In this document: piece after piece, positions 37,979 through 45,520 of the stretch
Layout: each line of letters begins with the position of its first letter
Position numbering within the stretch: the first letter of the stretch is position 1
Sequence record: NC_135732.1
Strand: one strand, 5' to 3'
Source: a phage
DNA: 64,000 bases
The notes under the pieces: generated by a model
Databases searched by the model: none
Told to the model about the DNA's origin: nothing
The model's input: the letters and a program-made list of their open reading frames with translations, nothing else
Position numbers and translations under genes: made by a program

Positions 37979-38098
37979 AGCACCGAGCCCACACAGGTTC
38001 CTCATGCTAAAGCATGACCTGAAGAGGCAAACGTGCATAATTCCTGTGCATTGAAACGTATAAACCCTGTTCACACTCTCATTCACAGAGGAGATTTC

Positions 38099-38314
38099 AT
38101 GAAGATAGAAATATTTGGTGGGGCTGACAACACTCGTGGCCTGATTTACCTTGAATTCGATGAATCATACCTGCCAGAGGTGTTAAATATAGACTCTGTT
38201 GCTGAGGCTTTGGGAGTAAACCCTAAAGAACTCCACTCTTGTGCTGAGATCGATGGTTGGGAAGAGACCATGAACATTGATTTCAGTGAAGTAGAGGATG
38301 AACCGCTGGACTGA
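38099..38314 (+). CDS. small acidic protein (MKIEI family-like)
   Basis: AGGAGA RBS then ATG 38099; track ORF started upstream. Confidence 0.5.
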   Translation: MKIEIFGGADNTRGLIYLEFDESYLPEVLNIDSVAEALGVNPKELHSCAEIDGWEETMNIDFSEVEDEPLD

Positions 38315-38443
38315 CACACAATTAGCTGCCCGGCTAAAGTGCTGGAAGCGCACCTATAACACATATTTCAACTAAATTTCCCACCACCACAATCACTTAC
38401 CTACCACACGTGACTGTTTGCTTGTTTAGTGAGCAGTCATGCC

Positions 38444-38471
38444 TTGACATTCTTGCCTATCCTGATAAAAT
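38444..38471 (+). promoter_or_regulatory. sigma70-like promoter firing into non-coding region
   Basis: TTGACA, 16-nt spacer, TAAAAT; no credible ORF downstream. Confidence 0.4.
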
Positions 38472-39791
38472 TAAGTTCTTCTCTTTTCTTTTACCGAGTA
38501 ATTCGGGTTTTCTGTTCTCTTCGGTTTGAAGGGGTATGGAGATACACCTGAGTGAACAGGGTGAACAACCGAACCATTAGCTATGGCATTAGCATGGCGA
38601 AGCGGACGGGTGACGAAAGAGGGGCCGGAGGACACCAGTCACTGCCATATGATATATGGGTGATAACCTGAAGAGTCTGAATAAGTGTTTAAGTACCAGT
38701 CAGAGGAAAAGGTGAATGGTAGCCGAAGGGGGAGGGGGGGTTTCTTGTATCTTTAATTTGTATATTATGTATACACTTGTAAACCAATTTCATATGAATC
38801 TGTTTACCACACAAAGTGGATTGAGACAAATATTACCTATTAAACTTGAATTATTTATAGAAAATACCACAACACACCTTAAGTCTTTGATTTTACACAT
38901 AAATCTTACAGATATTCAACCTCCATATTTAACATACTTGTAACATATCCTATACCACACCTGCCTGATCAATTCCCCCAACTACATCCTCTATATTTTC
39001 CCTGTCTGTACTACCCCATCCCCGCCGGGAGTCCCGTCATATCTGGCTTTCCAGCAAATATCACACCCACAAATATCATTGCCTGAAGAGGGTTTCATCC
39101 TCTAATACCTGCCTTACCTGAAGAGCGCTTCATACACCACGTAAATTTTTTAATTGACCTGCAATTTTCCCGTCATGACCCCCTGCCCCGCCGGAGAGGT
39201 TGGCTTTTCCCACACAGACCTGAAGAGTCAGCCAGAAATATCTGAACAGGCCCAATTCTACCACGATTTTGACCTGACCTACAGGAGTGCTGCCAGGCGG
39301 ACGAAATGGGAATACTTCTCATTCTTATAATAATTCTCAAATATCGAGGCAGTGAAGCAAATTAATAGGTGAGGCCGTTCACATAGTGGCACAACATTTG
39401 CAATCTATTTTGTGTGGGGGAATGAGAATACCTATCATTGTGAGAACTGTTATCATTACGGGCAATTTAACATAATACCCATTATGCGCACCACTGGCGA
39501 TACATACAGGGATTGATAACATGAGTTACTGTTTACGCATATAACAATTATATTTATTACTATTTGTGTGGGATATAGTTAGCAGCCGATAGATTAGATA
39601 TTGACCTGCGGACTTCTGACCGTCTAGACGTCTAAACGCCCACACAGCAAGAGTTATACATACATCGCTGAATGTAAACAGGGCCGCAAAAATGCTACCA
39701 TACCAGTTTGTAAATTTTTCATGCAGCACTTGACAAAGAGGAGAAAAACTTGTCTGACATAATGTGACCTAACTGACACAACATGACACTT

Positions 39792-39875
39792 TTACACACC
39801 TATTAGTTTACACACTGGATTGTTTACATTCCTGATTGTTCACATGCTAACCATTTACATGATTGACTGTTTACA
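39792..39875. repeat. iteron-like array of TTTACA(C/T)A motifs
   Basis: Six copies at about 15-16 bp spacing (39792, 39807, 39823, 39838 variant, 39854, 39870). Confidence 0.6.
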
Positions 39876-39888
39876 CACCGATAATCAG

Positions 39889-40138
39889 CCATGCCATTCG
39901 TTTGCATGACAATAATTATACATGACAATAATCGCACTGATTATAATTAGCATGACATAATATAAAAGCAGGGCAACTATTAGCAGATCTATAGTTGCCT
40001 TGCTTGTTATGTCATGATTAACTAAATACAAGGCAACTATGATCTGATTAATAGTTTGCAGACAAACTATCACGGGGGTGATGGTTACTGCTTTTATATT
40101 ATGTCGCGACTCCGTCGCGCCATGCCATTCGTTTGCAT
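39889..40138. repeat. symmetric element: 18-bp direct repeats flanking inverted repeats
   Basis: CATGCCATTCGTTTGCAT at 39890 and 40121; inverted arms 39950-39971 and 40089-40111; internal hairpin 39971-39998. Confidence 0.6.
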
Positions 40139-40763
40139 AGTTGCCTTATTGTTACAGATAAAATAATTGTATTGTTAATTATTTCTTATCTTTCTATTAG
40201 TCATCTAATGATTTCAGTTAATATAGTAACGTACAGTAAACATTAGACGACTAAAGATTTCTCTGCTTATGGTAACCTAACGTGACAATTCCAGACTGTT
40301 TACGAAAAATGTTGACACCTGGGCCGATTTATGTTATGCAGTTTACACGAATAATTATTTTATGCAGGTATTGACTATTCCGTTATTCTACGGTTGGAAT
40401 AAATGCTTAGCAGGCTATAGAATGGCGAGCGTACGTAAATTCTGAGATCTGGCGGCTATAGTTATACTCGATTTTTCACGTAGAAAACGCTTTTGTAGTT
40501 ATGTAAGTGTATGACTTATAAGAATTTTTAGTTGTTGACAAGCTATTGAAGATATGCATCAGGTTAAATTTTGTGCAAATGCTGCATTACGTGCAATTTT
40601 GGAAGGAAAAACGTGTAAAAATGGCCCTGCTACCACACAATGAAAAATTATGCAATAGTTATTTTATATGTATGTTTGTACAGTGGGGTTAATTGCTGGC
40701 TTGTTGATTATTCCATTTGCCAGGCGGGGCCATTTGTGGTAGGAAAAGAGGAGACAAAAAGAA

Positions 40764-43690: not shown

Positions 43691-43754
43691 GATTTTATCC
43701 TCTTAGTGTCTTTTGTGCTTTTAGTGTATTTGGTGTCGGACTATATGTCAATAC

Positions 43755-43952
43755 TTATTTTTTATTAAACCAGTGGTTGATCTGTCCTTTTGTCAGGGCG
43801 CAACGATTAAGCTGTTGCCGGGTATAGCTCTGACCGCGACGGAATTTATAAAGGCCTTGCCCGTTGTTGATGGTTACGTCCACCTGGCAAACCATTTGAT
43901 CGGTGACCACCTGGCGAGTGTTGCGACGTACTTTGATCCCGTATGCGTTCAT
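43755..43952 (-). CDS. hypothetical small basic protein
   Basis: AGAGGA RBS then ATG 43952; track ORF extended upstream to a TTG. Confidence 0.45.
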   Translation of the reverse strand: MNAYGIKVRRNTRQVVTDQMVCQVDVTINNGQGLYKFRRGQSYTRQQLNRCALTKGQINHWFNKK

Positions 43953-44392
43953 AAATTTATCCTCTTTACTGGTTAGTGCGGTGTTGTTCACCTTGTAGGG
44001 TAATAATACCATGATTAACCTTGTTGTCAACGATTATTTTAAATTATTTTTATGATAGAATCCACCTGCCGCCCCCGCCAGGTTAACCACCATTTTTCGT
44101 ACTCTTCTTTATGTTCCCGCGCTTCTGTATCATTAATCACTACATTTCCCAGGTGAGTAGCATTACCTTTCATTTTTGTACCTCCTCTTCAATTGTTTAC
44201 CCTACAGCATGGGCCTACCAGGTTTGCAAGATTTCACCCTCTCCCACCTGGTCAGTTAGGTCCTGCCAGGCTGGCCCCGCCAGGTTGCAACGGTTAGCGC
44301 ATCAGGTTAGAAAAATTTTTTGAAAAGGTGTTGACAGCGGCCCCGCCAGGGGGCACAATATACCTATCGAAAGGACGGCAGGCACCGGTGAC

Positions 44393-44590
44393 GGGGGAGA
44401 CAACCACCGGGGATGGGCGCTGCATAAAATGAGAACGGTTATCATTATCATTTAAAAATTTATGCAAAAAATCCTTGCCTTCTTTGTCCTGTGTGATACT
44501 ATAATAACAAGCCGGGGCAACAGGGGCCGGGAGACAATCACCGGGCCTGCCCGTTATTCTGCAAACGAGAATGATTATCATTCAAAATTC
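44393..44590. repeat. two copies of a roughly 65-nt repeat
   Basis: GAGACAA(C/T)CACCGGG...GAGAA(C/T)G(G/A)TTATCATT...AAAATT at 44393-44460 and 44527-44590. Confidence 0.55.
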
Positions 44591-44786
44591 TAAATGAGAA
44601 CTCCTCGCATTTAATAAATTTAATTAGCATGCTAATTACCCTCCGTAACAATTTCCTATAAAACAGTATCCCATAAAATATTCCCATATAGAAATTTTAA
44701 AAATCCATTTCTGAAAACGAAAAATCGATTTCGTCCCCAAAAATTTCAGGTCGAGAGCTGGAACGATTTCCAGAAAATCCGATTCA

Positions 44787-44882
44787 GAAAACGAAAAACA
44801 GATCGAGTACTTGGAAATTTATCGAGAAAAATTTTCAGAAAATTCAATCTTTGAAACGAAAAACAGATCGAGTACTTGGAAA
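44787..44882. repeat. tandem direct repeats, about 66-bp period
   Basis: AACGAAAAACAGATCGAGTACTTGGAA identical at about 44790 and 44856; degenerate third copy near 44711. Confidence 0.6.
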
Positions 44883-45187
44883 GCTGTACCGCAACTTCAA
44901 GATAGTGGTTAGATTATTACCATAAAAGGTCAAGGGTAAGTGGAGGAAGTTCTAGTAGAAGGATGTGAGCATGTGCGGGAAATCTGTAATGGTGGTCTGG
45001 AATATGGTGCAAACGATAGGATGAGCGATTCAGCTTGTCGCGCCTACTCTGAAAAATCCATTTTAGTTTTCGATCCATTTTCTGATTTTCTAAGAATTTT
45101 AAAATATCTGGTCCGGTTAAATATCAAAAGGAGGAAATCCATTTTAGAAATCCTCCTGATCTCTAGCAACCTGATAACTTAAAAATA

Positions 45188-45520
45188 TCAGGTGCCCAGT
45201 TTGTTCTTTCCTTTATACAACCGTAAGGGTATAGTTTTTGTAACAGTCCATCTCCCCAGCCCTTCCCAGTTCCAGTTGTAGGCATGGTACCCGGTTACGC
45301 ATGCACTGCTAGAGTGGTCATAGGCATAAGAGAACGCTATACGCACCAAATGGAACCAGTCTTTCCACGGTTGTGGTCCGTAAGCTTTTCTCCAACACCG
45401 ACACAAACTAAATGTCTCAAGAATAGGCAGGATAACAAATCCATACACCGCCACCAGAATAGCCAACGCAATGATTGTCAGGAATACATACCCTGCAGTT
45501 GAAACGATGATCTCTGTCAT
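45188..45520 (-). CDS. membrane protein
   Basis: GGGGA RBS; N-terminal transmembrane helix. Confidence 0.5.
   Translation of the reverse strand: MTEIIVSTAGYVFLTIIALAILVAVYGFVILPILETFSLCRCWRKAYGPQPWKDWFHLVRIAFSYAYDHSSSACVTGYHAYNWNWEGLGRWTVTKTIPLRLYKGKNKLGT

Follow-up and report, generated by a model that had tools for sequence, protein, structure and literature searches.

The closest described object to the locus reported here is Repeat Region 3 of phage T5 ('iss', in the left terminal repeat), approximately 1 kb of untranslated DNA that is better conserved than the open reading frames (ORFs) nearby and is packed with direct repeats and palindromes (bioRxiv 10.1101/866236). An island that is likewise non-coding, conserved, and rich in repeats and palindromes lies at 44174-45187 of a 64,000-nt stretch of phage DNA (record NC_135732.1; hereafter the window, with positions counted from its first letter). 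The window comes from an rV5-like phage (Vequintavirus); its positions 43700-45300 share 96% identity with Escherichia phage ime, and 121 phage records match them at 80-96%. Phages of this type are widely used as broad-host-range therapeutic and biocontrol candidates, and we know of no replication origin, early regulatory circuit or non-coding RNA described for them. We tentatively read the island as a cis control region that is transcribed by the host, gated by host Fur, and feeds an origin-like iteron array; it may link phage transcription or DNA replication to host iron status. Promoter activity, transcript 3' ends, Fur binding and its roadblock effect, protein binding to the iterons, and origin function are all what we infer from the arrangement of DNA elements described below.

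Nucleotide-level purifying selection acts on the island DNA itself. Across eight Vequintavirus genomes, column identity was 96-99% in 44350-44600 and 44700-44850 and 97% in 45050-45099, and lower in 44000-44350 (67-88%), 44900-45050 (81-85%) and 45150-45199 (79%). Taken as a core, 44330-44850 together with 45050-45100 shows 97-99% identity among phages with flanks at 67-88%. Positions 44174-45187 are non-coding (ORF tests are discussed below), and no other non-coding DNA in this part of the genome is conserved as well, which makes them a concrete place to look for an origin or for regulation. The elements of the island and its left edge are, in order:

44039..44173, minus strand: small ORF of 44 amino acids (aa) with Shine-Dalgarno sequence AGGAGG, holding G+C box copy 1 (CCCCCGCCAGG, 44072-44082)
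44262..44313, plus strand: G+C box copy 2 (GCCCCGCCAGG, 44274-44284, inside CCTGCCAGGCTGGCCCCGCCAGG) and putative degenerate promoter Pa
44331..44359, plus strand: predicted promoter Pb, TTGACA, 17-nt spacer, CACAAT; 10/12 in the promoter scan; inferred start at approximately 44366
44366..44430, plus strand: leader 1, with a G+C-rich possible hairpin (44378-44423) and GAGACAACCACC (44397-44408); no U-tract after it
44425..44455, unstranded: Fur-box-like site 1, core GAGAACGGTTATCATTATC (44431-44449) at 16/19, offset-6 neighbours at 44425 and 44437 at 13/19
44456..44502, plus strand: predicted promoter Pc, A/T-rich UP-like stretch 44456-44474, -35 TTGCCT 44475-44480, 16-nt spacer, extended -10 TGaTACTAT 44494-44502
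44509..44560, plus strand: leader 2 ('RNA B'), G+C-rich hairpin 44513-44553 with GAGACAATCACC at 44531-44542, then TTATTCT at 44554-44560
44561..44585, unstranded: Fur-box-like site 2, GAGAATGATTATCATTCAA (44567-44585) at 15/19, overlapping site at 44561 at 14/19; contains the palindrome GAATGATtATCATTC
44564..44863, unstranded: 300-bp stretch with the highest A+T content in the window (69.7%), directly downstream of Pb and Pc
44592..44638, unstranded: degenerate third palindrome AAATGAGAACTCCTCGCATTT (44592-44612) and perfect 18-bp palindrome TAATTAGCATGCTAATTA (44621-44638)
44687..44882, plus strand: iteron-like direct repeats R1 (44687-44743), R2 (44761-44817) and R3 (44826-44882)
44900..45049, unstranded: variable spacer, 81-85% column identity, ORFs on both strands broken in relatives
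45050..45160, unstranded: distal conserved block, AAATCCATTTTAG at 45054-45066 and 45135-45147, AAATATC at 45102-45108 and 45119-45125

Outside the genus, a sensitive blastn search recovered 44514-44623 from unannotated regions in Seunavirus, Mydovirus, Certrevirus, Henunavirus and Phapecoctavirus (70-88% identity); this RNA B (leader 2) region is the only part of the island that blastn finds in distant genera. When the loci of relatives were read, a module emerged that is conserved across two subfamilies, comprising five Vequintavirinae genera and the Stephanstirmvirinae (Phapecoctavirus), and that lies on the strand opposite to the flanking genes. It begins with a promoter P1 and a small DUF7170 ORF (in some genera), followed by P2 with RNA A, P3 with RNA B, one to four Fur-box-like palindromes, P4 (in some genera), approximately three 70-bp direct repeats, a spacer, and finally GAAAACCATTT with AAATATC repeats. 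The RNA B of this module corresponds to the second unit of the window (Pc, leader 2 and site 2). In Vequintavirus the DUF7170 ORF and RNA A have been lost, and the genus has instead a further B-like unit (unit 1) with a promoter of its own; a search of the window for the RNA A motif found it absent. In Seunavirus and Mydovirus the small ORF that opens the module (plus strand; 1069-1260 of locus L004 and 1097-1279 of locus L005) matches Pfam DUF7170 with E values of 2e-24 and 6e-26, and has no counterpart in the window's island.

A first-pass annotation made from the letters alone had reported three classes of repeat in the island. All three are present, with coordinates off by at most 1 nt, and its suggestion of iterons, operator arrays or small RNA genes pointed in the right direction, but it did not say how the elements are arranged. 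The units that it put at about 65 nt are predicted plus-strand cassettes of promoter, leader and Fur box, iteron-like behaviour is confined to the 65-74-bp repeats, and GCCCCGCCAGG is a promoter-associated G+C box, not an iteron. The 65-nt repeat is real (94% identity between 44395-44411 and 44529-44545, and 73% between 44427-44459 and 44563-44595, in a register of 134-136 nt), but the true unit measures approximately 135 nt and includes the promoter. Likewise, GCCCCGCCAGG had been listed three times; it occurs exactly at 44274 and 44340, while the third copy (44072) carries one mismatch (CCCCCGCCAGG). Allowing up to one mismatch, six matches were found in 64 kb versus 0.35 expected, and none of 100 shuffles reached six. 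GCCCCGCCAGG may also resemble the stem of the E. coli type I-E CRISPR repeat.

The predicted promoters Pb and Pc run against the direction of the flanking minus-strand genes. Pb is nearly invariant in the eight Vequintavirus genomes and has G+C box copy 3 (GCCCCGCCAGG, 44340-44350) inside its spacer. Pc, with an inferred start at A44509, is homologous to P3 of the other genera, in which promoter hexamers and spacing are conserved: P3 homologues keep TTGnnn, a 16-17-nt spacer and a TAnnnT-type -10 (often with an upstream TG) in 10 genus-level variants with differing spacers. In the GAP31 stretch the promoter scan returned five matches on both strands versus 1.5 expected; four sites are on the plus strand, including P2, P3 and P4, and P3 (the Pc homologue) was called with its TG. 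The Pb score, the conservation of P3 hexamers and spacing, and the GAP31 calls therefore make plus-strand transcription likely, and the predicted promoters are probably active. The more degenerate Pa has a -35 TTGCAA (44285-44290), which G+C box copy 2 abuts, and a weak -10 TAGAAA (44308-44313); it aligns with P2 of GAP31 and PVP-SE1 (CCTGGGGC-TTGCAA-N17-TATATT), the P2 promoters of other genera also having G+C-rich surroundings, and its -35 region is mutated in DrSchubert. Directly upstream of the P3 -35 in relatives lies GTAAA-N5-GTAAA (L004 1415-1438, and the same place in L005, L006, L007, L132, L133, L135 and L137), which we take to be the consensus of the envelope-stress regulator CpxR; the Vequintavirus window has its A/T-rich UP-like stretch at this position.

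Fur-box-like sites were scored as matches to the 19-bp E. coli consensus GATAATGATAATCATTATC, for which a Markov null predicts 0.3 sites of at least 15/19 per 64 kb. Sites 1 and 2 make up the 3' parts of the two 65-nt units. Site 1 is the best match in the whole window, and its copy in rV5 reaches 17/19. Site 2 is kept in all 11 relatives examined, and its AAACGAGAATGATTAT has 16 nt in common, without a mismatch, with the reverse-complemented fhuA operator of E. coli K-12. Operators proven in K-12, when passed through the same scan, scored 13 (fepA-fes), 16 (fepD-entS), 15 (entC) and 14 (fhuA) out of 19; by this measure the island palindromes are as close to the Fur consensus as genuine operators are. 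The island sites also form arrays of overlapping hexamers with an offset of 6 (44425/44431/44437 and 44561/44567), like those at fepA-fes, fhuA and entC. In the 11 relatives, sites of at least 14/19 occurred only in the matching palindrome cluster beside RNA B. Each box lies directly behind a leader, box 1 ending 26 nt upstream of the Pc -35, and the promoter scan found no good minus-strand promoter overlapping the boxes. On these grounds we lean, by a small measure, towards Fur binding the predicted boxes. A literature search for Fur boxes in virulent phages found nothing relevant.

Relatives carry one to three further Fur-like palindromes at the position of 44592-44638, a region conserved within Vequintavirus, and phAPEC8 has four tandem palindromes approximately 30 nt apart, two of them at 14/19 or better. 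The perfect 18-bp palindrome TAATTAGCATGCTAATTA, for which a simple calculation gives approximately 0.24 expected per 64 kb, lies between the Fur-like boxes and the iterons and is kept in Vequintavirus.

Similar palindromes were seen well beyond these subfamilies. The palindrome AAAYGAGAATGATTNTCATT occurs in at least 120 IMG/VR viral contigs of many apparently unrelated phages; among the matches listed, it often stands a few bases after a TTGACA-N17-TATAAT promoter and a cggcgcc motif, and sometimes in two to three tandem copies with a 30-nt period, one contig (L084) having three perfect copies. It looks like a widespread phage operator of Fur-box character. In the left terminal repeat of the T5-like phage chee24 (approximately 9.0-9.7 kb; 3162-3680 of contig L013), four Fur-like boxes of 14-16/19 cluster at the start of Repeat Region 3, the injection-stop region. 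A box of phAPEC8 and ESCO13 agrees with one of the four, TTAAATGCGAATCATTATCATTTGC, at all of 25 nt.

Downstream of the boxes, the long direct repeats reported in the first-pass annotation hold up: R2 and R3 are 82% identical over 57 nt, share a 27-nt core without any difference and follow one another at a 65-nt period, and the degenerate copy, R1, shows 61% identity. The 21-nt core of these repeats has no other copy in the window, with 0 expected by chance. Each repeat combines a box 1 (AAATCCATTTCTG-like) with a box 2 (GATCGAGTAC; GGTCGAGAGC in R1), 26 nt apart or, in R1, 48 nt. The surrounding A+T-rich block has 13 A-runs versus two T-runs on the plus strand, with A-tracts almost only on that strand. 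Three repeat copies are also found in 4MG, Mydo, F2M1E and Hena1, and three to four in POP15, the loci of GAP31, PVP-SE1 and KpS11 having been read only to the first repeat. The box sequences are genus-specific, namely AAATACGATCT...GATCGAGAACC in Seunavirus, Mydovirus and Certrevirus and AAATCCAAATG...CTCAAGTC in Hena1, and phAPEC8 and ESCO13 carry a different, unrelated repeat (AAACTTTAAAT). The iterons thus differ in sequence from one genus or subfamily to the next and the Fur boxes and leaders do not, a contrast that fits iterons that co-evolve with a phage protein and other elements that contact conserved host factors; we give even chances to the iterons binding a phage protein. The box-1 motif recurs at 45054 and 45135 in the distal block, where the AAATATC pair is invariant in Vequintavirus and the 10-nt spacer between its members varies in sequence and never in length. 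Homologous GAAAACCATTT and AAATATC repeats are present in 4MG, Mydo and POP15.

Taken together, these elements suggest how the proposed control region might operate. Host sigma-70 RNA polymerase would read the island opposite to the neighbouring genes, and its action would be mainly in cis, through two tandem cassettes that each combine a promoter, a G+C-rich leader with GAGACAAnCACC, and a Fur operator. Early in infection, polymerase would start at Pb (approximately 44366) and Pc (approximately 44509), both directed toward the A+T-rich iteron block, and the leader-2 hairpin with its U-rich tail (44513-44560), backed by Fe-Fur directly behind, would stop most transcripts. Once Fur is off the DNA, through low iron or dilution by replicating phage DNA, transcription would continue into the iteron region. 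A phage-specific DNA-binding protein would assemble on the iterons, most likely as part of a replication origin (of T7 type, with tandem promoters and A+T-rich DNA, or with lambda-type iterons), or alternatively as an early/middle regulatory switch.

Several observations weigh against this scheme. The terminator step is weak because the leader hairpins are only as stable as shuffled sequences and lack a consensus fold. Leader 1 has a minimum free energy (MFE) of -20.1 kcal/mol (z = -1.7, not significant); leader 2, at -21.6 kcal/mol (z = -0.96), is no more stable than its shuffles, with UUAUUCU after the hairpin, and is a possible intrinsic terminator. Of 11 hairpin z-scores versus dinucleotide shuffles, 8 lay between -1 and +0.7, the full range being +0.64 to -3.2, and RNAalifold found no consensus fold for RNA B; a conserved RNA B hairpin is unsupported on both counts. 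Pc scores 8/12, under the promoter-scan threshold. The boxes lie at approximately +56 to +82 from the Pb and Pc starts and not over the -35/-10 as in classical Fur operators.

The origin step faces difficulties of its own. Two features of iteron-type origins are present, namely at least three direct repeats in the same orientation (R1-R3) and an adjacent A+T-rich stretch. On the other side, no DnaA boxes (TTWTNCACA) were found in 44000-45200, and there is no adjoining initiator gene, the flanking ORFs being small proteins of no assigned function. GC skew, which changes only at the switch in transcription direction (approximately 37.5 kb), is uninformative as an origin marker; the rV5 genome paper reports the same behaviour and could not place the origin, without describing this island (PMC3606486). 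A+T richness is in any case usual for non-coding DNA, and the origin could equally be a larger non-coding island at 38.3-40.8 kb, which has some motifs in common with this one. That the region is a replication origin is, in our estimate, possible and on the doubtful side.

The larger island (38300-40760), also ORF-free, is located at the junction of the plus- and minus-strand gene blocks and offers a second candidate for the origin; a box marked 'non-coding' in the rV5 genome paper probably represents it. Among the motifs that the two islands share, it has Fur-like palindromes, each scoring 13/19, at 39320 and 39418-39460, a pair of AAATATCA copies at 39056 and 39071 and, on the minus strand, GCCCCGCCTGG at 40720. 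Its own repeat, CCTGAAGAG, occurs five times in 38018-39227 (six in the window versus 0.5 expected).

The main rival to a Fur-gated cis control region is a cluster of small trans-acting regulatory RNA genes. In that case Pb and Pc would yield nested RNAs of approximately 190 and 50 nt, both with their 3' ends at the U-tract of 44554-44560; mRNAs of the host or the phage would be the pairing partners of the exposed GAGACAAnCACC loop, and the downstream repeats would be further RNA or a sponge for an RNA-binding protein. Conserved promoters do stand directly upstream of G+C-rich hairpins, TTATTCT follows leader 2, and the hairpin apex GAGACAAnCACC (GTACAAAACACC in some genera) is the best-conserved leader motif across genera; a simple motif search for RNA B found only two copies in the window. 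In addition, a neighbouring RNA of the other genera does appear to be structured. RNA A, approximately 90 nt long and downstream of P2, is almost identical across two subfamilies (L004 1320-1405; L005-L007, L132-L137) and folds into a four-pair CGCC/GGCG hairpin, a CCC/GGG pseudoknot between loop and downstream sequence (H-type), and a second hairpin. Pairing holds in 96% of the aligned cells, both sides of three pairs have changed, and the covariation score is 0.169 versus 0.069 in shuffles and at most 0.062 for slid partners. Pair swaps comprise C-G to A-U in the pseudoknot of Hena1 and one IMG/VR contig (L114), and A-U to G-C in the second hairpin; G-U pairs favour the plus strand. RNA A belongs to no Rfam family, and on the opposite strand its first hairpin resembles an intrinsic terminator.

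This evidence does not carry over to the window, from which RNA A is missing. For the window's own units, the small structured RNAs proposed in the first-pass annotation are unsupported, given the mostly near-zero hairpin z-scores and the lack of an RNAalifold consensus noted above. The pairing register of the 5' arm of the leader hairpin differs between genera, and leader 1 has no terminator. Rfam covariance-model scans of the window region and four relatives returned two chance-level matches only (E 0.1-0.15, far under gathering scores), none within the cassettes, and a scan for tRNA and tmRNA genes found none. A small-RNA cluster would also leave the Fur boxes, the fixed-length spacers and the genus-specific iterons unexplained. 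We regard it as unlikely, yet ahead of the two lesser rivals that follow. A literature search for a Vequintavirus transcriptome found nothing relevant.

The first of these is a Fur decoy, in which replicated phage sites would soak up host Fur and position relative to promoters would be irrelevant. De-repressed iron uptake and Fur-controlled ribonucleotide reductase would then support phage DNA synthesis. The window does hold several near-consensus sites (the two in the island and the weaker ones at 39320 and 39418-39460), none of the island sites overlaps a core promoter, and tandem arrays are seen in the four palindromes of phAPEC8 and the three perfect copies at 30-nt period in one IMG/VR contig. 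To titrate a protein as abundant as Fur would take many genome copies, and in every genus a box follows strictly behind each leader, which speaks for a local role. A decoy function seems improbable.

A transcriptional insulator between two groups of minus-strand genes appears equally improbable. Here read-through transcripts would be halted or processed by plus-strand promoters that meet them head-on and by G+C-rich hairpins, and the repeats would be bent A-tract DNA with no specific partner. The promoters do face the flow of the flanking genes, A-tracts are frequent, and the minus strand of the RNA A hairpin in GAP31 and phAPEC8 reads as a textbook terminator (CGCCGTGGGGTGGCG then TTTTCTCTTC). 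That terminator is missing from the window, where a minus-strand terminator scan of the island found only a weak A/U-rich one (44744-44707), and an insulator needs neither 500 bp of near-invariant sequence nor three genus-specific bipartite repeats nor Fur boxes.

It is very improbable that the island encodes small proteins, namely a 95-aa product of 44294..44581 (minus strand), an 80-aa product of 44940..45182 (plus strand) and a 32-aa product (minus strand). Two candidate ORFs fall in PHROG families, phrog_14993 (E 4e-62) and phrog_35702 (E 7e-31), and the 95-aa ORF is open in all eight Vequintavirus genomes. These families are collections of auto-annotated ORFs from near-identical DNA, annotators of close relatives have put different ORFs here on differing strands, and a Pfam search of the island ORFs gave no matches. 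Coding tests on the alignment of eight Vequintavirus genomes covered seven candidate ORFs, and in none of them were variable columns concentrated at third codon positions (10/10/13 over the codon positions of the 95-aa ORF, and 24/29/33 in another candidate). The 95-aa ORF stays open because its DNA hardly varies; its C-terminus frameshifts, almost all of its changes are non-synonymous, it has no Shine-Dalgarno sequence, and it is absent outside the genus, all of which agrees with the first-pass annotation, where it had been called spurious. The 80-aa ORF and a 53-aa ORF (minus strand) have stops or frameshifts in relatives, the 32-aa ORF (minus strand; ATG 45143-45141) is frameshifted in DrSchubert, and other genera keep the DNA elements but not the ORFs. 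Protein coding of 44174-45187 is rejected on the codon-position and ORF-integrity tests, and comparison with related phages, which the first-pass annotation had put forward as a check, showed no ORF with coding-type conservation in that interval. Its statement that no convincing ORF is present needs amending at the left edge alone, where the 44-aa ORF (44039..44173) has a strong Shine-Dalgarno sequence and matches phrog_21957 (E 1e-10). Even this ORF is a doubtful gene, being stopped or frameshifted in three of eight genomes (rV5, DrSchubert and NHEP1) with variable columns of 9/13/7.

Finally, an RNA antitoxin mimic, suggested by the tandem non-coding repeats that act as a type III antitoxin mimic (pseudo-ToxI) in the Vequintavirinae phage phiTE (PMC3475682), has a negligible probability as an account of the 65-nt repeats and is contradicted by position and sequence, since the phiTE element (106,714-106,772, between tRNA-Tyr and phiTE_203 near the terminase) is not a homologue of the island, the repeats here are 65-74 nt long and not 36 nt with no ToxI similarity, and copy number is fixed at three in most genera examined.

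Some database records that resemble the island are probably misassigned. The 16-17 records named 'Campylobacter phage' (MG0656xx) are approximately 91% identical to the island region and are probably mislabelled rV5-like genomes; the E. coli 'plasmid' CP057073.1 (137.6 kb), at 95% identity, is probably a mis-filed rV5-like genome. A host origin of the cassette was rejected: 5,426 E. coli genomes hold no homologue, and CP057073.1 is the sole 'plasmid' match.

Of the known systems, E. coli Fur operators (fhuA, iucA, fepD-entS, entC) provide the nearest match for the boxes. The island sites, at 15-16/19, are within the 13-16/19 range of the real operators, and share with them the offset-6 overlapping hexamer arrays, an AATGAT-n-ATCATT core and, for fhuA, the 16-nt identity given above. 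They differ in being 56-82 nt downstream of the putative starts and in belonging to a virulent phage with no iron-related gene nearby. If Fur binds, host iron status would be linked to the programme of a strictly lytic phage, a link for which our literature search found no report.

The remaining parts of the island recall elements of other phages. Like the primary origin of T7, it has tandem promoters that read into an A+T-rich stretch, and like lambda-type iteron origins it has at least three same-orientation repeats with adjoining A-tracts; unlike either, its repeats are bipartite and 57-74 bp long rather than approximately 19 bp, no initiator gene adjoins, and the predicted promoters are of the host-polymerase type. 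With lambda oop RNA it shares a putative constitutive host-type promoter directed against the main operon and a short RNA predicted to end at a hairpin, whereas no coding sequence lies opposite the island and its RNA structure is statistically unsupported.

The T5 region remains the best overall comparison. A T5-like contig shares a Fur-like palindrome with the island, with no sequence homology beyond the palindromes. The paired DnaA boxes in inverted repeats that define Repeat Region 3 are absent from the island, and the T5 region is part of a terminal repeat and is linked with DNA injection in two steps; relatives of rV5-like genomes have been reported to be circularly permuted (PMC3475682). 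We regard the island as a phage non-coding control or origin-type region whose new feature would be operators of the host Fur type. A broader proposal, which we put forward as a guarded possibility, is that at least three unrelated virulent phage lineages (Vequintavirinae, Stephanstirmvirinae and T5-like Demerecviridae), together with many uncultured phages, carry conserved Fur operator arrays in non-coding control regions. If true, such phages would use host iron status as a signal that gates their early transcription or replication, or would re-programme host iron metabolism by titrating Fur, and the T5 'iss' repeat region would be partly Fur-binding, which would offer a testable new reading of a long-unexplained region.

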